Source of the DNA: a virus
Length of the DNA: 64,000 nt
Direction: 5' to 3' (one strand)
Virus record (IMG/VR): IMGVR_UViG_3300045988_177049
Span: 1-64,000 of that record
The notes beneath the pieces are model-generated. The model did not search any database, had not been told where the DNA came from, and saw only the letters and a list, made by a program, of their open reading frames with translations. The first letter of the stretch is position 1. Each line of letters begins with the position of its first letter. Both the position numbers and the translations under genes were made by a program. Below, one piece after another: positions 45,164 to 55,846 of this stretch.

Positions 45164-46861
45164 ATGGCTACGATCCCCGTCAGCCTCATTGGACAAAAGC
45201 CAGGTCACCTTGACCCATACACGGCAATCCCCGCTTTCATCGGCGATTGCGACCCTGTAGCAATGCTCGACGCTATGGTGACCCACACGCTCTTTGAGCC
45301 ACTGAACGCAAACCAAACGGTCGCTGTGGTTGTGAATAATCAACCGATCGACCGCGATGGTGCAAACGAGCTTCTCCTTCGATCTGTCGGTGAAGTTCTG
45401 GACCCCGTTGCTCAGGAAGTGATGAACACGCTCTTTGAGCAGGCTCTCACCAGGTGGATCCCTTCGGCATCGTCACCTGTCGATGAAGCCTTCATCACCC
45501 AGGCCGCTGCCACGTGCAAACTGCCTGACCCGAGCAAGGCTCTCTACACCACGCAATCCGACGTGATCCCGGCTGTAAAAGACGTGCTTGCGGGTAACGC
45601 TGGAACAGACCTTCTCCTGGTGTCCTTGGGATGGACCTTCCACCCACACACCGTGGGGTTCTGGTTCCGTACCAACGCTGAGTTCGATGCGTTCAAGACA
45701 TGGCTTCAAGGCGAGCTTGCCAAGATTGCGTCCAATATCAGCACCCCTGATATGCGGATGTTCCAGCAGTTCGATGCGCTCACGCTCACCGATCTGACCG
45801 AATCGCTCATCTTGCGAGCAGATGACTCACAGGCTCTGGATGAGTACTCGTTCGCACGTGTGCTCATGTGGGCGCTCATGACATGGACTCACAACAACGC
45901 TCCCCAGGCAGGCGCGCCCCAGACATGTGGCGTTCTCCCATTCAGCATCGCTGAGATGGCTTTGCCCAGGACTCTCGTTCTGGTCAACATTGAAGCTCAT
46001 GCCAGGACCTCTATGCGCAAGATCATTAACGAGTGGGAACTCATCAACAAGTCACTCCACACACCTGTGAAGCTCGTAACCCCAGGGCAGCTAAGCAAAC
46101 TCACGGCTCTCGCCCGTGCGCAGCAAAAAGCATCAGCCCAAGCTGCAAACAGCTTGTCCAACGCGCACCAGCAAAAGGGTCGTAGTGGTCGCGTGGTATT
46201 CCACAAGCGCCCAACACACCCTGTTGACATCTACAAGTCTGTCATGCGCGTGCTCACTCGTATGTCCAAGGTCAACCAATCGTTGAACTCGATTCGCAAT
46301 GTGACGACGAGTTTCGTCAGGGCCAACAGGCGTCAACCTAATGATCCGAACAAGCCAGGTAAGGTCATTTCGCGTAAATACCTACCCGACATTCACATTT
46401 ACCTTGATACGTCAGGGTCTATCTCCACCGAAAACTACGAAGATACGATCAAAATGCTCATCACTTTCGCCAAGAAAATGGGCGTTGATCTGTACTTCAC
46501 GAGCTTCTCACACATCATGTCCACTCCTGTGCGTCTTCGTATCAAAGACCGCTCGGTAAACCAGGTGTGGAAGCAGTTCGCGGCTGTGCCGAAGGTTTCC
46601 GGTGGAACCGACTACGAGCAGATTTACACCTTCATCAACGAACACCCCACTCTAAGGCGTCGTTTGAACCTGGTGATCACTGACTTTGAATGGTGGCCTG
46701 GGTCATACCACATCGATGTCCCAGAAAATCTGTACTACGTTCCGATCTCTGTTCCATCTGGGTACTACTCATCGTTGCGTAACAGCGCCATGAGCTTTGT
46801 CCGTTCGATGGAAAAGATCGATCCGAGTACGGGGTCTCGAATCCTTGGTATGACCAACTGA
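45164..46861 (+). CDS. von Willebrand factor A (VWA) domain protein, partner of MoxR
   Basis: MIDAS motif IYLDTSGSIS (DxSGS) in the C-terminal half. Large N-terminal region of unknown function. Immediately downstream of the MoxR ATPase. Confidence 0.6.
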   Translation: MATIPVSLIGQKPGHLDPYTAIPAFIGDCDPVAMLDAMVTHTLFEPLNANQTVAVVVNNQPIDRDGANELLLRSVGEVLDPVAQEVMNTLFEQALTRWIPSASSPVDEAFITQAAATCKLPDPSKALYTTQSDVIPAVKDVLAGNAGTDLLLVSLGWTFHPHTVGFWFRTNAEFDAFKTWLQGELAKIASNISTPDMRMFQQFDALTLTDLTESLILRADDSQALDEYSFARVLMWALMTWTHNNAPQAGAPQTCGVLPFSIAEMALPRTLVLVNIEAHARTSMRKIINEWELINKSLHTPVKLVTPGQLSKLTALARAQQKASAQAANSLSNAHQQKGRSGRVVFHKRPTHPVDIYKSVMRVLTRMSKVNQSLNSIRNVTTSFVRANRRQPNDPNKPGKVISRKYLPDIHIYLDTSGSISTENYEDTIKMLITFAKKMGVDLYFTSFSHIMSTPVRLRIKDRSVNQVWKQFAAVPKVSGGTDYEQIYTFINEHPTLRRRLNLVITDFEWWPGSYHIDVPENLYYVPISVPSGYYSSLRNSAMSFVRSMEKIDPSTGSRILGMTN

Positions 46862-46963: not shown

Positions 46964-48805
46964 ATGGGCCTGTCAAACTTTACACCCACAGACATCGGCG
47001 GCAACCCCGGCACTGGGGGATCGAACATCCCTCTATCGTCCTTGCTCGGCCCACTTCTGACAGGCGGCTCTGACATTAACGATATGCTCATTAACTACAA
47101 CGAGACGTACAAGAGCGCCACACCTGCTCTTTTCCGTGATGAGATCGTCACCCAGACCATGAGCATCATCTCGTCCTCTCGCAAGCCGAACGCTCTACTC
47201 GTCGGCCCAGCTGGGGTTGGCAAGACGGCGATCGTCGAAGAGATCGCCAGGCGCATCGCTAATAAAGAGGCTTCTGTGCCCCCGCAGCTCGCAAACACGA
47301 CGATCTACGAGCTGCCAATTGCAACTCTCGTTGCAGGCGCTGGCGTAGTCGGTGATCTGGAAAACCGCATCACCGAGATCATCAAGTTTGCACAGGATGC
47401 AAACAACGATGCACTGCTGTTCATTGATGAGATCCACCTCATTGCAGATAGCAACAACACGACCTACGCCAAGATTGCACAGATCCTCAAACCCGCTATG
47501 GCCCGAGGATACATCCGCGTGATCGCCGCAACGACCATGGGTGAAGCGAAGAAACTCGATGACGACCCGGCGTTCAAGCGCCGTTTCTCATCCGTCATCG
47601 TCGATGAACTCACCCGTGAGCAGACCCGTCAAATCCTGGACATTGTTCTGCCCGGTATGCTCACCCACTACCAGAACAAGGTCACGGTCGCCCCCGACGT
47701 CCTTGACGAAATCGTCATGACAGCCGACCGTCTCATGAGTACGGGACACCGCCCTGATACGGCGATTACGCTTCTCGACCGAGCACTGAGTCACTCCGTC
47801 ATTAGCCACCACGCGGCGATCCAGGAAGCTCTCGCTTCTGGGAACACGACGAGCGCACAGATGCTCCAGCAGATTACTCATATTCCGTTGACGGCTAAGC
47901 GACTGAACACAATCGCCATGCTTCTTGTCACCGGACAATCCCAGCCCCCACACCTTGATGTGACAGCTCTCCAAACAGAGCTATCCAGGCTCAGGGGTCA
48001 AGAAGAGGTTCTTCCCCGCATCGTCGACGCTTTGCGCAGACGCGAGCTGAACATCTTCCCGAGCACTCGCCCCACCTCATGGCTTTTCGCCGGGGCATCC
48101 GGGGTCGGCAAGTCGGAAACAGCCACGATCATCTCATCTATGGTCACTGGGCAAAAGCCCATCATCCTCAACATGGCTGAGTACCATGACTCGGCGTCGA
48201 TCAATCGCATCATCGGCTCACCAACCGGCTACGTCGGTTCGGACAGCGCCAAGGAACGACCTTTCGATACCTTGGCATCGAACCCCTACCGCGTGATCGT
48301 CCTTGATGAGTTTGAGAAGGCCGATATGTCAGTGCAGCGACTTTTCCTCTCTGCTCTGGATACCGGCGAGATCCAGATGGCAAACGGTCCAGCCGTTGAC
48401 CTCTCGCGTTGCATCGTCATTGCAACGACAAACGCTGGAAGGCAGAAACTCTCTGGCTCCCAGATGGGCTTCGGGGATCATAAGCACTCCATGAGCAAGC
48501 AGTCTTTGACCAAAGAACTCCAAAAGAGTTTTGACGCAGAGCTGCTGGGACGCTTTGATGATCTCATCGCGTTCATGCCTTTGGGTGCCGACGACTACGC
48601 ACAAATCTTGCGCGATGAATACAATCGCCAAGTAAAGCGTATTTGCGCCGAGCGCCCAGACCTGAGCTTTGATCCAATTGATGATGACACCATCGCTCAA
48701 TTGGTCGATGAGACATGGCTCGTTGACCAGGGCGCACGCCCGGCCATTCGCGCCATCCGCGCTCTGATTGAAGACATGCTGCTCGCTCAGGTAGCGAACT
48801 CATAG
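46964..48805 (+). CDS. ClpA/ClpB-like double AAA+ ATPase (short, no obvious middle domain)
   Basis: D1 Walker A LLVGPAGVGKTAI and Walker B LLFIDEIHLI. D2 Walker A LFAGASGVGKSET and Walker B VIVLDEFEKA. RBS gaaaggagg. Confidence 0.65.
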   Translation: MGLSNFTPTDIGGNPGTGGSNIPLSSLLGPLLTGGSDINDMLINYNETYKSATPALFRDEIVTQTMSIISSSRKPNALLVGPAGVGKTAIVEEIARRIANKEASVPPQLANTTIYELPIATLVAGAGVVGDLENRITEIIKFAQDANNDALLFIDEIHLIADSNNTTYAKIAQILKPAMARGYIRVIAATTMGEAKKLDDDPAFKRRFSSVIVDELTREQTRQILDIVLPGMLTHYQNKVTVAPDVLDEIVMTADRLMSTGHRPDTAITLLDRALSHSVISHHAAIQEALASGNTTSAQMLQQITHIPLTAKRLNTIAMLLVTGQSQPPHLDVTALQTELSRLRGQEEVLPRIVDALRRRELNIFPSTRPTSWLFAGASGVGKSETATIISSMVTGQKPIILNMAEYHDSASINRIIGSPTGYVGSDSAKERPFDTLASNPYRVIVLDEFEKADMSVQRLFLSALDTGEIQMANGPAVDLSRCIVIATTNAGRQKLSGSQMGFGDHKHSMSKQSLTKELQKSFDAELLGRFDDLIAFMPLGADDYAQILRDEYNRQVKRICAERPDLSFDPIDDDTIAQLVDETWLVDQGARPAIRAIRALIEDMLLAQVANS

Positions 48806-48887: not shown

Positions 48888-49544
48888 ATGTCTACCATGC
48901 GTACCGTTCAATACACCCTTCACGAAACCGATGGGTCTTTGACGACCGTCGTCGCTCACTACGGCATCCGAAATGACCGCGTCAGCGTCATGGGAGAGGT
49001 CTATTACAACCGTGAAGATGACCAAACCCCGCTTGCCAACCTTGATCCCGATAAGTGCGGGCAGGTATGCGATGAGATTAAACAGGCGTTTCCGTGGCTA
49101 GAGCCTCTCATGGAACTCCATCTTGCCGACGCTTACACAGGGGCACCGATGTACGCCCTCGATAATGGGTGGTTCTGGCTTCATGAGGATGAAGCTGATG
49201 GCCCGCTCATCACCACCGTTAGCCGTCGTCGCGCAGCCAGGTACCTTCGCACGACACCGGACATGTTAGAGGACGTTCGCACCAAGAACGACCTCGAAGT
49301 TCTGATCAACACCGCACTGGCCCCGGCGTGGAAGAAACAGATTGACGCTGCATTGGCACTCTACGATCTGTCCACCGGCCATAAGCCACAGGTCAATAAA
49401 GACCTTGAGTCTCTCCAGATCATCTACACCGATGATAAGGGATGTCTCTACACCCAACCATTGAGCGATTTGTCCGACGTAGGAACCCTCGTCAATCCTG
49501 ACGAGGACACCGATCTCACCATCGTCGGTTACACAATCGCGTAA
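48888..49544 (+). CDS. Hypothetical protein
   Basis: 218-aa ORF with RBS aaggagaac. Confidence 0.45.
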   Translation: MSTMRTVQYTLHETDGSLTTVVAHYGIRNDRVSVMGEVYYNREDDQTPLANLDPDKCGQVCDEIKQAFPWLEPLMELHLADAYTGAPMYALDNGWFWLHEDEADGPLITTVSRRRAARYLRTTPDMLEDVRTKNDLEVLINTALAPAWKKQIDAALALYDLSTGHKPQVNKDLESLQIIYTDDKGCLYTQPLSDLSDVGTLVNPDEDTDLTIVGYTIA

Positions 49545-49643
49545 CCGTCTATTCGCTCATCACACCATCGATCGGTCAGTACCGCCACTGGCCGATTGAT
49601 GGCTTATTCATACACTTATTTATATTCAGAAAGGAAGGCTTTC

Positions 49644-51527
49644 ATGCCCATCCTCTTGGAAAGCATTGATACCGCAGCCGCTCAGATCAATACCGTTGCT
49701 GAGGCGGGTAAAGCCCGCACGATCAAGGCTGTCACTCCCAAATTCTTCTCGTCCTCTCTGACCGGCCAGGGCAAGAAGCAAGGCGTGCTGAACTCTTCCG
49801 TTGTCCCCGGTTTCTACCCTATGGGTCTGAGCCGTGCAACGATGGGAAGCACCGACATTCGCTATAAGGAACGTCGCACTTCGAACAACGTCACCAGCCA
49901 CATTATCCCCATCGGCACTGTCGTTCGACGCGCCTATGAGCAGGGATACGGCTATATGAAGGTTCCCGTCCCCTCTGAGGCGAACGCATTCTCCGTGCGC
50001 TTGACGAGCGATACCGACGACTTCGATATCTACGCATCCTGCCACGTACAGGGCCTCGTCATGCGCGAGGATCGTAGCGGACGAGAAATGGTCAAGGACC
50101 TTGCCGTCTCGTACCGCACGATGCTCTACGTCGTTCCGCCCGTAAAGGACGAAGACGTTGACGACCTGGAAGCTCAGATGGACACTCTGTGCGACCAGGA
50201 TCTCGCCTCTTGCGACATCGATGATCCAGACTTCATCGACGCAAGCGACGAGGACATCATGGCTTTGGACGATGAGTCTGTCGATTCACTCGTCCTGAGC
50301 GTAGACGATGACTACCGCACTCGTGCCACCCTGCTGAACATGTCGGCGTCCAACTTCCGCAACCTCTCGTATCGCATGAGTGTCGAAGGCCAAGCCTGGG
50401 CCATTGTTGACTGGAGCTATGCTCCCGTCGAAGATTCCATCGACCTACCGTGGAACGACATCCTGTGCGCCGTAGGTATCGATCCTTCGCGCCAGAACGA
50501 GTTCCGTGACACTCTGAATCAGTTCTACGCTGATTACAGCGTCTACGAGAACATTACGTACAGTGCGCAGCGGTGGACCAGCAATGGTATCGCTGAGGAC
50601 ATCCGAGACGTTGTTGCCGCTCTTGTACCCAAGACCCGCACCTACAACGACGATCAGTTGGCTCAGATGGTCTACCAGCTTCGCTACATGGAGCAGTACA
50701 GCGTTCCACTGCCTGCCTACCGCGAAGTCTACACGGCCATCAACACACTCTGTGACCCTCAGACTGCATCGCGTCTGATGAAGCAGAACATGAACCTGCT
50801 GATGAACGAGACCTTGCACGAGCTGGGATCTCACCGCGACGAACTGGAGCGTGCACCTCAGTCGATGGCAACCACTCCGATCCAAGGCCAGCTCTCACCT
50901 CAGCAGAAGGCCGCTGTGTGCTCGACTGAGCCTCTCTCCATCACTCAGGCAGGAGCGGGCGCTGGTAAGAGCACGGTGATCCTTGCTCGTATCAACCAGC
51001 TCACGCTGTGCGGGGTCAACCCCTCGGACATCACTGTGCTGTCGTTTACGAACGCGGCGGCGGACAACATCATCAAAAAGAACCCCAACGTTCGCTCGAT
51101 GACCATTGCCCGCATGATCCATGATCTCTACATGACCTACTTCCCCACCCACGAACTCAGCTCTGTTGAAACGATCGCGAACTCTCTGGGTATCTACATG
51201 CCCGGAGACGCTTTCGCGCTTCAATTCTCTCAGCGTCTTCGTCGGTTGGAAGGTCGTGATGCACAAGGTGCCTACACCTCGCTGAACAACTTCATCGAGG
51301 CACACCTTGAGCAAACCGTTGACGCTCTGAACCTCATTAAGCAAACGTCCTTGGAACTAGAGATCATCCTCGCGTACCAGACGATTGATCGGATGCCGCT
51401 GCCTTCGGGTCTGAACATCCGCCACCTCATCATCGACGAGGTACAGGACAACTCCGTCTTTGAGTTCATCTACCTGCTCCGCCTTGTGAGCAAGCTCAAG
51501 GCATCACTTTTCATCGTGGGTAAGCAT
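49644..51527 (+). CDS. UvrD/PcrA-like SF1 helicase, exon 1 (long N-terminal extension plus motifs I, Ia and II)
   Basis: RBS aaaggaagg. Motif I ITQAGAGAGKSTVI. Motif Ia VLSFTNAAA. Motif II IIDEVQDNSVFEF. The reading frame then runs into ..SLFIVG. The exon boundary is approximate to within a few nt, because a 2-nt discrepancy in my base counting could not be resolved. Confidence 0.55.
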
Positions 51528-52582
51528 TGCTCACGTTAAACCCTACTAATTGCGGGAAACTCATGTTTTCGCGATAACGACCGCGACTATTGAGAAACCA
51601 ATAGTGCAGCAGATGAGATAACGCTCATCGGATGGTAACACCGTTATCGTCAATGACAATCCGCAGCCAGCCACCCCAACGTCAAGCCGTGGGTGGAAGG
51701 TTCATCGACTATCGAACGCGCTGACACATTATCAGCAATAAGCCATGAGTAATCCCATGGCGAAGCAAGTAGAGTAGCGACCACACACGCATCATGTGGT
51801 ACGCGAAATGATGGGCATGTTTGGTATACTCTACCTAACATGAAGATATAGTCAACCAATTCACGAAACGAGGAAACTGATGCTGTCCTCACCTGACATC
51901 AACAGACGACATTCGCTCAACACATACTTTTTCGACACCATCCATAATGAAGCACAAGCTTATTGGCTTGGTTTCTTATGGGCTGATGGATCATGGTCGA
52001 AAACCGCTCCACGGTGCAGTGGCCCCAACAGGCTCACTCTTAGCCAGAAGCTCTCAGAGATTGATCATCTCCAATTGTTTCTAAACACCCTTGAAGCGGA
52101 TTACCCCATTCGACGTGTTAACAACGGATACGGACTAGCCGTCGCCGTACACATTAACAGTCGACCTTTGTGCGTAAGCCTCGAACAATTAGGTTTTGCG
52201 CGTAAAGACCAACGTGTTCATATTCCACCGATACCATCGCATTTACTACATCACTTTGTTCGTGGATACTTTGATGGGGATGGATGTCTATCTGTCTATC
52301 AACAGACAGTTGGTAATGCCGTCATCAATAAGCAGGAATGGTCCCTCACTGGACACCCCAAATTCATCGCAAACATTCGTCAGCTTATTGAGCAAAACGT
52401 TGATGTCTCTCAACGAGTGAAGATCAAGACTTATAAACGTACCGATAAAGCTGTCACTTTACGGTACGGCAAAAAGTCCGATATCTCCGCTCTCTATGAT
52501 TACTTGTACCAAGATGCCACCGTGTATCTTGACTCAAAGTATCAACGATTCGTAGAGTTCTTCACTCGTGAGAAGAACTAGG
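51528..52582 (+). mobile_element. Putative group I intron (about 1.05 kb) interrupting the helicase gene, carrying a LAGLIDADG homing-endonuclease ORF
   Basis: Helicase motif III is split as FIVG | DASQTLYEFRSA across three different reading frames, so this is not an intein. The upstream exon ends in T and the insert ends in G, as expected for a group I intron. The HEG ORF ends 1 nt before the predicted 3' splice site. Confidence 0.5.
51880..52581 (+). CDS. LAGLIDADG homing endonuclease (two-motif, single-chain)
   Basis: Motif 1 AYWLGFLWADGSW. Motif 2 VRGYFDGDGCLSV. 233 aa. RBS acgaggaaact. Confidence 0.8.
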   Translation: MLSSPDINRRHSLNTYFFDTIHNEAQAYWLGFLWADGSWSKTAPRCSGPNRLTLSQKLSEIDHLQLFLNTLEADYPIRRVNNGYGLAVAVHINSRPLCVSLEQLGFARKDQRVHIPPIPSHLLHHFVRGYFDGDGCLSVYQQTVGNAVINKQEWSLTGHPKFIANIRQLIEQNVDVSQRVKIKTYKRTDKAVTLRYGKKSDISALYDYLYQDATVYLDSKYQRFVEFFTREKN

Positions 52583-53818
52583 GATGCTTCCCAGACGCTC
52601 TACGAGTTCCGTTCGGCAAACCCGAAGGCCCTGAATGCTCTTGAGGCATCGGGTGTCTTCACCCCCTACAAGCTGGAGACCAACTATCGGTCGAACCAAG
52701 AGGTTCTGGACATGGCTAATGTTCACCTTTTGTCCGAGATCGAAGCCAACCAGCTTGCACAGATCCGCCTTCGTGCAAACTCGCTTGTTCCTGTGACCGC
52801 GCAGTCGTTCCAAGACAAGGTTCATGTCGTCCATGAGCACTACACCTCTGATGCCAAGTTCATTGGCGACCTGCCTAAGCTGCTCTCTCAGCACACCTAC
52901 ACCTATGTTCAGGACTGCCTGAGCCGTGGTGAACAGGTGGCGTTCTTGGCCTTTACCCGCCGAGAAGCGTTCGCTGTCCAAAAGCGCTTGGAAGAGATGT
53001 TCCCAGGCCGTTCCGTCATCTCGATGATCTCGGACAGGCGTCGCGCGTCGACGTTCTTCTCGGCCTTCATCAAGATGTACTGGTCTGACATCGAGGCCGT
53101 GGATCCCGCAAACGCCGCATACGTGTTTGCAAAGGAAATCATTGCACGAGGCCCCGCCAGCAATGCCCAGGCTCAACAAGCCTTGGCAAAGATGGCGAGC
53201 GAGTGGTGGACTGAATCGGGTTCGGCCATCCAGGGATGGATCTACGAGTACCAATCCGCCATCATCACCAAGGAGACCTTCTTCGATCGCTTGAAGAAGT
53301 GCATCCTTGATTACGAAATCCGGTACAACTCGATTCGCGATGCTCTCATGCACCGCAACAACGAGGAACGCAAGATTCGTAACCTGGAAACCAACGCTGA
53401 TCTCATTGTCTCCACTGTTCATGGAGTCAAGGGTCTTGAATTTGACAACGTTGTTGTCATCTACAAGGATCAGTCCGACATGAGCGAAGAAAAGAAGAGG
53501 CTCTATTACGTCGCGTTCACGCGCGCGAAGAACTCTCTGTTCGTTCTTTCTCATGGCACCACGTTGTCCGCGCGAATCCTCAGCGACTACAACCTCATCG
53601 TTGACTCGCTGACCCAGCCCGGTTCTACAGACAATGAGGACGAGGATACCGCCACCACTGTTACAGTGGTAAACGAAGATGATGTCCCCAGCGAGGAAGA
53701 TACTCCTTGCTCGGATGCCACCGATACCGATGGCTTTGCTGCTACACGTGCTCTCGTCGCCAGCATCCAGACCGACCTTCCAGGTCTGTCTGCAACTGAC
53801 GATGAGGACGACGCGTAG
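52583..53818 (+). CDS. UvrD/PcrA-like SF1 helicase, exon 2 (motifs III-VI)
   Basis: Motif III DASQTLYEFRSA. Motif IV LETNYRSNQEVLDMAN. Motifs V/VI VSTVHGVKGLEFDNVVV and YVAFTRAKNSL. Confidence 0.55.
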   Translation, partial: DASQTLYEFRSANPKALNALEASGVFTPYKLETNYRSNQEVLDMANVHLLSEIEANQLAQIRLRANSLVPVTAQSFQDKVHVVHEHYTSDAKFIGDLPKLLSQHTYTYVQDCLSRGEQVAFLAFTRREAFAVQKRLEEMFPGRSVISMISDRRRASTFFSAFIKMYWSDIEAVDPANAAYVFAKEIIARGPASNAQAQQALAKMASEWWTESGSAIQGWIYEYQSAIITKETFFDRLKKCILDYEIRYNSIRDALMHRNNEERKIRNLETNADLIVSTVHGVKGLEFDNVVVIYKDQSDMSEEKKRLYYVAFTRAKNSLFVLSHGTTLSARILSDYNLIVDSLTQPGSTDNEDEDTATTVTVVNEDDVPSEEDTPCSDATDTDGFAATRALVASIQTDLPGLSATDDEDDA

Positions 53819-53835
53819 TCATCGTCTGTAAAATT

Positions 53836-53873
53836 GCCCCATGACTCCTGCCTCGTCGTAGGAGTCATGGGGC
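53836..53873 (+). terminator. Stem-loop terminator
   Basis: gccccatgactcct ... aggagtcatggggc. Confidence 0.55.
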
Positions 53874-53923
53874 ACCAACACCACAAAGCTCTATACTACT
53901 CTCTTTTTTTGAAAGGAGCACTC

Positions 53924-54631
53924 ATGCAAGACATTCGCCGAGGCGACATCTGGTTCATTCAACCCGCACCTGTCCCAGGAGGCGGAACTGTCGGCAACGA
54001 GATGTGGTCAGGAAGGCCGGGCGTCATCGTCAGTAACGACACCTTGAACCAACACTCTGGTGTTGTTCAGGTCGTTTACCTTACGTCAAGCGACAAGCGA
54101 CGCGCGTCTGCTACACACGTGGTCGTTCATGTGAACAACCAACGTTCCATCGCCATCTGTAACCAAGTGACGAACATTGATACATCTCGTCTGACCCAAT
54201 ACATCGGACGTGTATCATCTCTTGATCTCTACAACATCCAAAACAGCATCGCCTTCGCTCTTGGTTTAGGTGGAGCTAAACCGGGTGAAGCTCTGCATAA
54301 ATGGGAAAAGCAACTATCAGCTCATGGGATTGATCTGTTCGAGCAAGAACTCAGTCTCAACGACGATATTAACTACTCTGAGCGCATCGAAGGTTTGAAG
54401 AAAACTATTCTCCAAATCGCACGTGAGCGTGACGCCCTCGCAACAGCGATCCGAGCGCACAGCGAGCACTCGTCGATGTATCAAGAGCTAAATAAAGTTT
54501 TTGGTACACCATCGACGCCGCCAATTCAACCTACCCAGAAAAAGACCAAAAAGAAAAAGAAGAAGGTGCCAAATGGAACCCACACCCACACAGCTCAGGT
54601 ACATCAAAAGAAACGCCAGAAAAGCCGCTAG
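53924..54631 (+). CDS. MazF/PemK-like endoribonuclease toxin domain fused to an about 120-aa C-terminal helical/Lys-rich extension
   Basis: N-terminal RGDIWFIQPAP..GNEMWSGRPGVIVSND..VVQVVYLTS..VVVHV..CNQVTNIDTSRL (PemK/MazF fold pattern). C-terminal coiled-coil plus KKTKKKKKKV. No upstream antitoxin gene. RBS gaaaggagca. Confidence 0.6.
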   Translation: MQDIRRGDIWFIQPAPVPGGGTVGNEMWSGRPGVIVSNDTLNQHSGVVQVVYLTSSDKRRASATHVVVHVNNQRSIAICNQVTNIDTSRLTQYIGRVSSLDLYNIQNSIAFALGLGGAKPGEALHKWEKQLSAHGIDLFEQELSLNDDINYSERIEGLKKTILQIARERDALATAIRAHSEHSSMYQELNKVFGTPSTPPIQPTQKKTKKKKKKVPNGTHTHTAQVHQKKRQKSR

Positions 54632-55073
54632 AGACGTTCTTGCCGCATATGCTGAGCGTTCTCGTATCCCTGTCAAACCTATCGCCATTGCTCGATCAAT
54701 GGGACTGAGGGTTTTAGAAGCCCCTCTGCCCGGCTACGCCTGGGGAATGATCCTCGGTAACCTCGATGGGACGGCACACATCTATTTCGACGAGAATCTC
54801 CCACCTGTGCGTGCTCGCTATGCGTGTGCGCACGAGCTTGGTCATTACGTTGCAAACAACTGTACTCTCGAACCATGTATGGGATATCAATGCGGCAGTG
54901 ACGAACATCAAGACATGGCTGAAATCTATGCCGACACCTTTGCCAAGGAACTGCTTCTTCCCCATCCTGAGATCGACGTATGTATTGAAGATGGACTGAG
55001 CATCTTTGAGATCGCACGTACATTTGAAGTACCTGTTGGTCTCATTACGTATTCGAAGAAGCAAAAACAGTGA
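54573..55073 (+). CDS. ImmA/IrrE-family zinc metallopeptidase
   Basis: HEXXH AHELGHYV with the upstream ImmA-like region (IPVKPIAIARSMGLRVLEAP). RBS aagaaggtg. It overlaps the 3' end of the MazF-like gene by about 58 nt in another frame. Confidence 0.65.
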   Translation: MEPTPTQLRYIKRNARKAARDVLAAYAERSRIPVKPIAIARSMGLRVLEAPLPGYAWGMILGNLDGTAHIYFDENLPPVRARYACAHELGHYVANNCTLEPCMGYQCGSDEHQDMAEIYADTFAKELLLPHPEIDVCIEDGLSIFEIARTFEVPVGLITYSKKQKQ

Positions 55074-55384: not shown

Positions 55385-55846
55385 ATGCGTATTCGAAACG
55401 GTATAGTTACCACGCTCCATGCGTACAGCACTGATAGTGAGTTCACTAACGTGCTTAAAGGTCGTTACATCACCAATGTGATCAACAATAACGTCATCGT
55501 CCTTGACAATGACGTGCATCTTCACATCCAAATTAACACTTCCCATACGTTCATTCAGTACATCAACGTTTGGGGTAAGCCTGATGCACGCATCAGATCC
55601 GCTTACCTTGAACCTGATGATGAAACAACAGTGAGCCTTACTTCGTCTTCGCTCGAAACTCTACAGACGTACACATTATTCGTCGACATCAACGGTGTAG
55701 AATATCCAGTCTTCAAGATCGTTCAAAACAACGAATTGTACACGCCGGATATCTTTACAATCACCGCTTATGCCAATCAAGACGTTTATGTGGAAGCATA
55801 TGTGGATCGTTACTTACGCGGAGCACAATTTCCATATCCTTCGTAA
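55385..55846 (+). CDS. Hypothetical protein (candidate toxin partner of the Panacea-domain protein)
   Basis: 153-aa ORF in a low-GC island. No recognisable motif. Confidence 0.4.
   Translation: MRIRNGIVTTLHAYSTDSEFTNVLKGRYITNVINNNVIVLDNDVHLHIQINTSHTFIQYINVWGKPDARIRSAYLEPDDETTVSLTSSSLETLQTYTLFVDINGVEYPVFKIVQNNELYTPDIFTITAYANQDVYVEAYVDRYLRGAQFPYPS

Follow-up and report, generated by a model that had tools for sequence, protein, structure and literature searches.

What divides the UvrD-like helicase gene of an uncultured phage into two pieces? The question is raised by a stretch of 64,000 nucleotides, positions 1 to 64,000 of the IMG/VR virus record IMGVR_UViG_3300045988_177049 (hereafter, the window), in which superfamily 1 (SF1) motif III of the helicase is interrupted by an insert of 1061 nt on the + strand (51522-52582). 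The initial annotation had read the locus as a helicase gene split inside motif III by an about 1 kb group-I-type intron carrying a LAGLIDADG homing endonuclease, and our analyses agree in length, content and kind: the insert holds an intact endonuclease gene and is very probably a mobile group I intron of IA type. The case is built on uninterrupted homologs of the helicase, on a ribozyme core kept by compensatory changes and on splice-site helices that follow the exons they join.

A helicase gene interrupted within motif III

The exon 1 open reading frame (ORF), called over 49596-51539 with ATG 49644 as its likely start (GAAAGGAAGG lies just before it), encodes an N-terminal extension, SF1 motifs I (Walker A), Ia and II (DEVQD) and the first half of motif III. 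Its translation ends ...KLKASLFIVG with U51521, the last base of the exon, after which the ORF adds KHCSR and meets a TAA stop at 51537-51539, 16 nt into the insert. Exon 2 opens with GAT GCT TCC at 52583 (DAS QTLYEFRSA; DASQTLYEFRSANP...) and supplies what is left of motif III (DASQTLYEFRSA) together with the later SF1 motifs and an acidic C-terminal tail. In Pfam, UvrD-helicase (PF00580) and AAA_19 (PF13245) match residues 433-642 of the exon 1 ORF translation, and UvrD_C (PF13361) and UvrD_C_2 (PF13538) match exon 2; motifs I-VI stand in order and both the N- and C-terminal UvrD domains are present, as in SF1 helicases of the UvrD/Rep/PcrA type. The allotment of motifs to the two exons, with ..SLFIVG closing the first, had been seen correctly beforehand, and the split falls between a Gly and an Asp codon. 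Spliced conceptually, the exons yield a helicase of 1037 aa with motif III intact.

A homolog search with this 1037-aa protein returned more than 100 uninterrupted proteins of 1036-1060 aa, all including the N-terminal extension, two of them at 95% identity and the rest mostly at 72-76%. The suspicion that the two halves might normally be separate genes, voiced in advance as a possible flaw of the intron proposal, is rejected by these full-length homologs. In the uninterrupted allele of locus L001, ...TTCATCGTGGGT/GACGCAAGCCAG... (the slash marking the junction) encodes FIVG/DASQ with nothing missing and uses GGT for Gly; the two halves are therefore one gene with its junction between the Gly and Asp codons. 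Alignment with intronless homologs thus puts the junction exactly where the initial annotation had placed it, and the interval suggested there for checking (51528-52582) began 6 nt too late, the true start being 51522. Other empty sites read TTCATCGTGGGG/GATGCTTCCCAG (L127) and ..GGG/GACAGTTCGCAG (L129). The same search also found a set of proteins of about 630 aa covering exon 1 only, and the contigs encoding them have the intron at the same point.

The interrupted gene appears to be in use and under strong purifying selection. Across 930 nt of joined-frame exons flanking the intron, the ratio of nonsynonymous to synonymous divergence (dN/dS) among intron-bearing phages is 0.01-0.09, with no stop codons, and it is low even between two phage clades whose synonymous divergence (dS) reaches 1.3-1.8. 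The insert itself stands out by its G+C content, 43-48% vs 54-58% in the exons and flanks. The ORFs of exon 1, the endonuclease and exon 2 lie in three frames (start coordinates 0, 1 and 2 modulo 3), which had already been taken to exclude an intein, and the TAA stop 16 nt into the insert adds to that exclusion. Nothing beyond the presence of an insert favours any other kind of element or an assembly chimera: neither a reverse transcriptase nor a transposase is encoded, group I is the sole RNA family matched, and the same junctions recur in dozens of independent assemblies from different samples. We regard these alternatives as already refuted and their probability as next to nil. The details at the ends of the insert, a 5' exon ending in U, an insert ending in G and an endonuclease stop codon (TAG, 52579-52581) 1 nt before the terminal G52582, are as first described.

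In a scan of 49300-54000, predicted promoters and terminators were no more numerous than in shuffled sequence, and nothing points to a terminator separating the exons or to a promoter reserved for the endonuclease. Picked up in the terminator scan was a 16-bp stem-loop at 49565-49602, just upstream of the helicase start and overlapping the alternative TTG/ATG starts 49596 and 49599; such sites are no commoner than in shuffled sequence.

The N-terminal extension, noticed earlier as about 400 aa without a known function, occupies 49644-50890 (helicase residues 1-415, about 412-415 aa) and is a regular part of the protein, being carried by the full-length homologs too. It matches no Pfam family at E <= 0.01, a word-indexed homolog search with it returned in-family proteins only, and an exhaustive phmmer search with 412 aa gave 151 cluster representatives, nearly all of them N-termini of the same helicase family. 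The AlphaFold model of the extension, made with 16 sequences, is poor (mean predicted local distance difference test score, 56); it is beta-rich at about residues 83-164 and helical at about 235-402. Megablast with the locus as query found nothing among 50,697 phage records, and tblastn of the helicase found only short matches of 25-40% identity to Bacillus and Moorella phage helicases; the helicase is therefore one without a cultured relative.

Ribozyme core and predicted splice sites

The curated gathering cut-off of the Rfam group I model RF00028 is 50 bits, and at gathering thresholds the whole window yields tRNAs only. In E-value mode, the model matches 51501-51875 over its full length (1-253) with 47.1 bits and an E-value of 1.7e-10 for the region or 7.3e-9 for the whole 64-kb window, in which it is the only such match. 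The Rfam search that had been recommended for recognising the intron therefore succeeds in E-value mode and fails at the default thresholds, which miss it; the core, whose absence had been named as the outcome that would sink the proposal, is detected. The alignment shows the conserved P4/P6 strands AAUUGCGGGAAA ... AAUCCGCAGCC, the J6/7-P7 segment GGUUCAUCGACUA and the J8/7-P7' segment GAAGAUAUAGUC; relative to the model, P5 and the interval from P7 to the 3' strand of P3 each contain a large insertion. Given the low E-values and the same arrangement in many independent assemblies, the insert is not a product of chance. The second insertion, of about 95 nt, forms three hairpins, two of them with compensatory changes. 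Extra helices at this place are the mark of subgroup IA in the Michel-Westhof scheme, and by their position the intron classifies as IA type, IA-like being the finest level that we assign. P7.1 and P7.2 are listed among the features for classifying group I introns (PMC3984707).

The fold was modelled with RNAalifold on mini-introns from which the ORF body had been removed, and its pairs were counted in 20 distinct copies (11 in an earlier count). The model recovers P1, P4-P6 with the branched P5 extension, P7 with the three hairpins that follow it, P8 and a long-range helix bracketing the ORF, and the initial assignment to group I, made without deriving the P1-P9 pairings, gains from this its structural basis: P1, P3-P9 and P10 are found, with compensatory support. 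The modelled base pairs hold in 98.5% of cells across the 20 copies, and 14 pairs are changed on both sides (in P1, P5a, P5c, P7.1, P7.2, P8 and P9), whereas in controls with the 3' partners slid by 1-3 columns, 28-43% of cells pair and 0-4 pairs are doubly changed. In P9, all six pairs hold in all copies, and columns 358:434 are A-U in 13 copies and G-C in seven; as its two strands flank the endonuclease ORF, the ORF is looped out of P9. A divergent copy, that of L157, reaches 47.3 bits on RF00028, and the helicase that it interrupts is 57% identical to that of the window; in comparison with the window copy, 23 modelled pairs are retained although both of their bases have changed (P5, P5a, P5b, P5c and P6). 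The window core is more stably folded than shuffled sequence, with a minimum free energy (MFE) z-score of -3.56.

The splice sites are defined by P1 and P10. In P1 (9 bp), exon CGUGGGU (51515-51521) and intron AA (51522-51523) pair with the internal guide UUGCUCACG (51527-51535) around a GCA loop, and the cleavage-site wobble U51521.G51529 is the sole U.G in P1 with the U on the exon side. U occupies position -1 in all 20 close copies and in all 42 copies of a metagenome collection described below, while the distal pair, between exon position -7 and the last guide base, varies: C-G in 13, U.G in five and U-A in two of the 20 copies, with A-U also seen among divergent metagenome copies. In 15 intron/exon types, cognate P10 measures 6-10 bp, compared with a mean of 3.6 bp in non-cognate combinations. 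In every intron-bearing allele GGT precedes the intron, which ends in G and among close relatives is followed by GATGCTTC; empty alleles, on the other hand, use GGG, GGC, GGT or GGA for Gly, the following codons vary, and the DNA pattern at the junction is TTCATCGTGGGK/GAYGC... Such co-variation of P1 and P10 with the exons makes sense only if the predicted splice sites are in use.

From this anatomy we infer the following course of splicing. The helicase gene would be transcribed as one pre-mRNA, in which the ribozyme forms from the first 358 nt of the insert; a free guanosine would attack after U51521, presented by P1 in the U.G wobble; and the freed end of exon 1 would then attack after G52582, with the 7-bp P10 positioning exon 2. 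The ligated window junction is predicted to read ...CTTTTCATCGTGGGT/GATGCTTCCCAGACG... (GTGGGT/GATGCTTCC), giving a message for the 1037-aa helicase with its motif III restored.

Several observations weigh against this reading. The RF00028 score is 2.9 bits below the curated cut-off, and only two of seven divergent copies reach E < 1e-3 on the model in a larger search. P3 is weak in the window copy, with three G-C pairs and a U.U, the fourth pair being C-G only in L157, and the P9 region has two mutually exclusive folds, each with some compensatory support, which leaves the 3' domain unsettled. The shuffle control overstates the significance because the sequences are related, and the slid-partner control is the fairer one. 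Finally, the empty allele of L127 reads GTGGGG/GATGCTTCC, the product expected of a splice shifted 1 nt upstream. Such a shift is disfavoured, since the U.G wobble would become a G-C pair, but the sequence alone does not exclude it; because empty alleles use four Gly codons and the shift destroys the wobble, we take the G of L127 as ordinary third-position variation. The flanks of this locus (IMGVR_UViG_3300045988_170034) are identical to those of intron-bearing alleles except for G in place of T at -1, and recombination, variation of the target site or a past intron loss that left its footprint could each explain the allele.

One could also imagine that the insert is a dead, non-splicing remnant and that the helicase is made as two polypeptides, an N-half running to ...VGKHCSR and a C-half starting at GTG 52568 or elsewhere in the intron tail. 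Gene callers yield exactly these products, the exon-1-only proteins cluster by hundreds, and the GTG lies in frame, 15 nt upstream of exon 2. We find this very unlikely. No Shine-Dalgarno sequence precedes the GTG, and the read-through tails vary by lineage; compensatory changes preserve the ribozyme in ORF-less copies, where nothing else would favour its conservation, and P1 and P10 follow the exon sequences, which is relevant only if splicing occurs. Moreover, the split separates adjacent motif III residues that are contiguous in all solved relatives, the GajB, Rep, UvrD1 and PcrA chains aligning continuously over the spliced junction, and a helicase cut at this point is unlikely to function as two chains. 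A spliced intron accounts for the conservation, as the ORF-less forms must still splice and their ribozyme structure is maintained for that reason.

Table 1. Coordinates of the helicase gene, the intron and its parts in the window
Feature	Position	Strand	Basis or remark
Helicase gene, intron-split	49644-53818	+	ORFs, Pfam, uninterrupted homologs
Helicase exon 1	49644-51521	+	ORF, start codon, Pfam; junction set by uninterrupted homolog L001
P1	51515-51535	+	RNAalifold; pairs hold in 20/20 copies
Predicted group I ribozyme core, without P2	51522-51879 (first 358 nt of insert)	+	RF00028, covariation, MFE z-score
P3	51541-51544 with 51812-51815	+	added by hand as pseudoknot with P7
P4	51551-51556 with 51660-51665	+	
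P5	51561-51564 with 51653-51656	+	
Branched P5 extension	51571-51650	+	
P6	51666-51701	+	
P7	51707-51712 with 51848-51853	+	
P7.1/P7.1a/P7.2, three hairpins between P7 and 3' strand of P3	51721-51804	+	Rfam insertion, covariation
P8	51817-51841	+	
P9, 5' strand UCACGA	51861-51866	+	RNAalifold
Shine-Dalgarno GAGGA (51870-51874) and ATG (51880) of endonuclease	51870-51894	+	two alternative pairings
Putative homing endonuclease gene, 233 aa	51880-52581	+	PF14528, phrog_4645
LAGLIDADG motif 1, LGFLWADG	51967-51990	+	
LAGLIDADG motif 2, VRGYFDGDG	52258-52284	+	
P9, 3' strand UCGUGA	52566-52571	+	pairs with UCACGA 51861-51866; inside last endonuclease codons
Terminal G of intron (omega G), 3' splice site	52582	+	direct reading; G there in every copy examined
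P10, 7 bp	52583-52589	+	exon 2 GAUGCUU with intron bases 1-7, AAGCAUU (51522-51528)
Helicase exon 2	52583-53818	+	Pfam UvrD_C and UvrD_C_2; stop 53816-53818

The endonuclease and the probable movement of the intron

The endonuclease scores 30.2 bits against LAGLIDADG_3 (PF14528; cut-off 22.5) and matches phrog_4645 with an E-value of 1.1e-42, the profile covering residues 9-227; no sequence in the PDB matches it at E < 0.1. Its ORF is intact in all seven distinct ORF-bearing copies with dN/dS of 0.07-0.18, which points to strong purifying selection, and the acidic residues of both LAGLIDADG motifs are kept when L157 and the divergent introns are compared. Orthologs of 234-238 aa sit at the same 3' position in divergent introns, the one in L157 being 60% identical. 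In that locus the TAG stop of the endonuclease ends exactly at the terminal G, and in L194, L199, L204 and L221 (introns of 1071-1138 nt) the ORF has no stop before the 3' splice site and apparently continues into exon 2.

Between the two phage clades, endonuclease dS is 0.52-0.70, less than half of the exon dS given above; at synonymous sites the endonuclease is thus younger than the helicase, an indication of horizontal movement. The nearest relatives of exon and intron are discordant as well: exon 1 of the window is closest to that of L063 (98%), and the window intron to that of L043 (97%, vs 94% for L063). Lower divergence and discordant relatives together argue for movement between phages after the lineages had split.

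Three allelic states coexist at the site. Of the 20 distinct intron copies, seven (1061-1062 nt) contain an intact 233-aa ORF and 13 (416-425 nt) lack it, the lengths over all metagenomic relatives being 1061-1063 nt with the endonuclease and 414-429 nt without an ORF. The close relatives in IMG/VR include six empty, ten ORF-less and five ORF-bearing loci. The ORF-less introns keep the Shine-Dalgarno sequence, the AUG, about the first 15 codons and about the last 38 nt of the ORF. These retained ends derive from the endonuclease, as judged from the extent of the profile match and from the conserved amino-acid sequence of the C-terminal tail in L157, which makes the ORF-less introns deletion derivatives. 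Their deletion junction lies at a short TCAAC repeat, found in GCTCAACAC near codon 14 and in TATCAACGA near codon 220, and the alignment suggests that the ORF was lost by microhomology-mediated deletion.

The start region of the endonuclease may itself be under structural control. In a local fold, GAGGA pairs with UCCUC (51890-51894) and leaves the AUG in the loop, a hairpin that, on inspection of the alignment, nearly all of the 20 copies preserve with A-U to G-C exchanges; the long-range alternative from RNAalifold pairs GAGGA with UUCUUC (52558-52563) instead, extending P9. The ribosome binding site is thus paired in either modelled fold, and translational control of the endonuclease would be a plausible consequence.

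We infer splicing, endonuclease activity and the endonuclease target alike from sequence. The LAGLIDADG enzyme, expressed from the P9 loop, would cut the empty site in intron-less helicase alleles of co-infecting relatives, and repair from an intron-bearing genome would copy the intron together with adjacent exon bases, that is, accomplish homing. Alternatively, the intron may splice while its LAGLIDADG protein is kept mainly as a maturase and is no active homing endonuclease. The strong purifying selection on the ORF and its overlap with the P9 3' strand and the 3' splice-site region would suit that role, and LAGLIDADG maturases are known, including one bacterial case in a Thermotoga 23S intron (PMC3984707). 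Set against this, ORF-less introns outnumber the ORF-bearing ones and persist in genes under purifying selection, so splicing needs no protein in cis; both LAGLIDADG motifs retain their acidic residues; and an endonuclease dS below that of the exons speaks for movement. We therefore hold the maturase role to be very improbable and the homing role of the protein to be the better explanation.

Distribution, genome context and relation to known systems

The intron extends well beyond the close relatives of the window. With a search pattern that joined the codons for DEVQDN of the helicase to the P4 strand of the group I core, set about 100 nt downstream, the local matches were only known intron-bearing loci, and the metagenome collection gave 42 loci (L185-L226), all of them matched by nhmmer with the core profile at E-values between 1e-134 and 1e-22. 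Every one has an exon 1 with ...GUGGGU at its end, and the intron ends in G in all 38 for which exon 2 could be located. The 42 loci have nine different intron 5' segments with matching different exon 2 starts, among them GAUUCUUC, GAUUGUAGC, GAUGCAAGUC, GAUCCUAGC, GAUUGCAGUC, GACUGCAGC, GACGCUUC and GAUUGUUC. The trace of the intron is visible even in protein collections: nearly all representatives carrying the N-terminal extension come from proteins of 870-1460 aa or of 519-601 aa, the latter making up 28 of the 150 listed representatives at 50% identity (P0136-P0258). All but one of these 28 stop right after ...SLF[IMV]VG and a short read-through tail such as KHCSR, RHCSR, RHNCPR, KQLLT or RL, or KLRLPTLNPTNCG..., which is translated P3-J3/4-P4. 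Single divergent proteins, P0168 and P0178, found no related IMG/VR loci when used as queries. The same site is occupied in lineages whose N-terminal extensions are only 25-37% identical to that of the window, and the pattern as a whole points to one intron family that has spread, at one site, through a large and diverse family of phage helicases.

Such constancy might hint that the intron has been co-opted, splicing serving to time or gate helicase production and the ribozyme being kept for the benefit of the phage. The occupation of one site across divergent lineages, the re-tuning of P1 and P10 in each allele and a majority of ORF-less introns unable to home by themselves are the grounds for this idea, which we nevertheless judge unlikely.

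The window covers the replication module of an uncultured phage, with genes for a RecJ-like exonuclease, primase, DNA polymerase, helicase, clamp loader and ClpB-like ATPase, and related contigs are about 100-125 kb long. The sole hint of a host is one related phage contig binned into an 'uncultured Actinomyces sp.' metagenome-assembled genome, and an actinobacterial host is weakly supported. Upstream of the helicase lie a 565-aa ORF with an HNH-endonuclease-like region (45164-46861; phrog_1314, residues 367-512) and the 613-aa two-domain ClpB-like AAA+ ATPase (46964-48805), both conserved in relatives. Directly downstream, in the 53834-55073 region, is a MazF/PemK-like toxin gene (phrog_1936, E 5e-26) whose ORF ends in a lysine-rich tail, KKTKKKKKKV, and overlaps by about 130 nt with the start of an M78-type metalloprotease (ImmA/IrrE-like) ORF; the pair is kept in relatives with a shorter overlap. 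The interval between the metalloprotease and an Endonuclease_NS_2-like gene looks like a variable slot, holding an 81-aa SocA_Panacea-domain gene in L002 (8799-9044) and an unrelated 153-aa ORF without a PHROG match in the window (55385-55846). At the other end of the window, tRNAs at 1-54, 223-296 and 1261-1332 comprise two tRNA-Gln (UUG and CUG) and the 3' part of a third cut by the window start.

Automatic annotation turns the gene into three products, two of them labelled 'helicase' (N-terminal, about 630 aa, and C-terminal, about 415 aa) and one labelled 'endonuclease'; gene callers make this split systematically, and the fragments fill large public protein clusters. Recognising the intron restores one 1037-aa gene across a lineage of uncultured phages of about 100-125 kb. 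With its empty, endonuclease-bearing and deleted states, its P1/P10 co-variation and its younger endonuclease, the system offers a natural data set on the cycle of gain, decay and loss of a homing element, and the LAGLIDADG enzyme, with a predicted target in helicase motif III, may offer meganuclease work a new specificity.

A literature search found no description of this particular intron, and we regard it as a previously undescribed example of a well-known kind of selfish element, one that leaves the current understanding of group I introns unchanged. That phage DNA-metabolism genes can harbour, in their conserved motifs, group I introns with homing endonucleases is textbook knowledge (PMC3984707, PMC2988022). 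The initial annotation had called self-splicing introns uncommon in helicase genes of actinobacterial elements. In this helicase family they are common, and helicase genes of staphylococcal phages have been reported with group I introns (PMC3706429), which qualifies the remark on rarity; its actinobacterial part shares the weak support of the host assignment.

Like the phage introns reviewed in PMC2988022, the window intron, predicted to be self-splicing, occupies a conserved motif of a phage DNA-metabolism gene, has extra helices between P7 and the 3' strand of P3, loops its ORF out of a peripheral helix with the ribosome binding site in RNA structure, and has ORF-bearing, ORF-defective and intron-less relatives; in those systems, the flanking exon is co-converted. 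In the T4 introns, sequestered ribosome binding sites are the rule for intron endonucleases, and homing in trans is known (PMC2988022). Unlike these introns, the one in the window encodes a LAGLIDADG rather than a GIY-YIG or HNH enzyme, interrupts a UvrD-like helicase gene, lacks P2 and has a branched P5 extension.

At the protein level, the window endonuclease resembles the 'intron-encoded endonuclease' of Staphylococcus Twortvirinae phages (phrog_4645-type), with about 30% identity over more than 90% of the length. That gene too sits between two halves of a recombination or repair gene, whereas the host gene and the insertion site differ. A crAss-like phage has a 'mobile intron protein' that likewise shares about 30% identity with the window endonuclease. 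Rfam searches of the staphylococcal and crAss-like loci with endonuclease homologs gave no group I match, and kinship of the ribozymes is thus unsupported there.

A parallel from phages of a high-G+C Gram-positive host is provided by the group I introns in the LittleE capsid and BAKA tail genes of Cluster J mycobacteriophages (PMC3706429). Those introns lie in virion structural genes and their splicing was shown experimentally, whereas that of the window intron is predicted; the LittleE endonuclease, moreover, is I-CreI-like, has 177 aa and is encoded on the opposite strand. The LittleE/BAKA pair again consists of one intron with a LAGLIDADG gene and one without an ORF, each following an exon 1 that ends in U and itself ending in G (PMC3706429).

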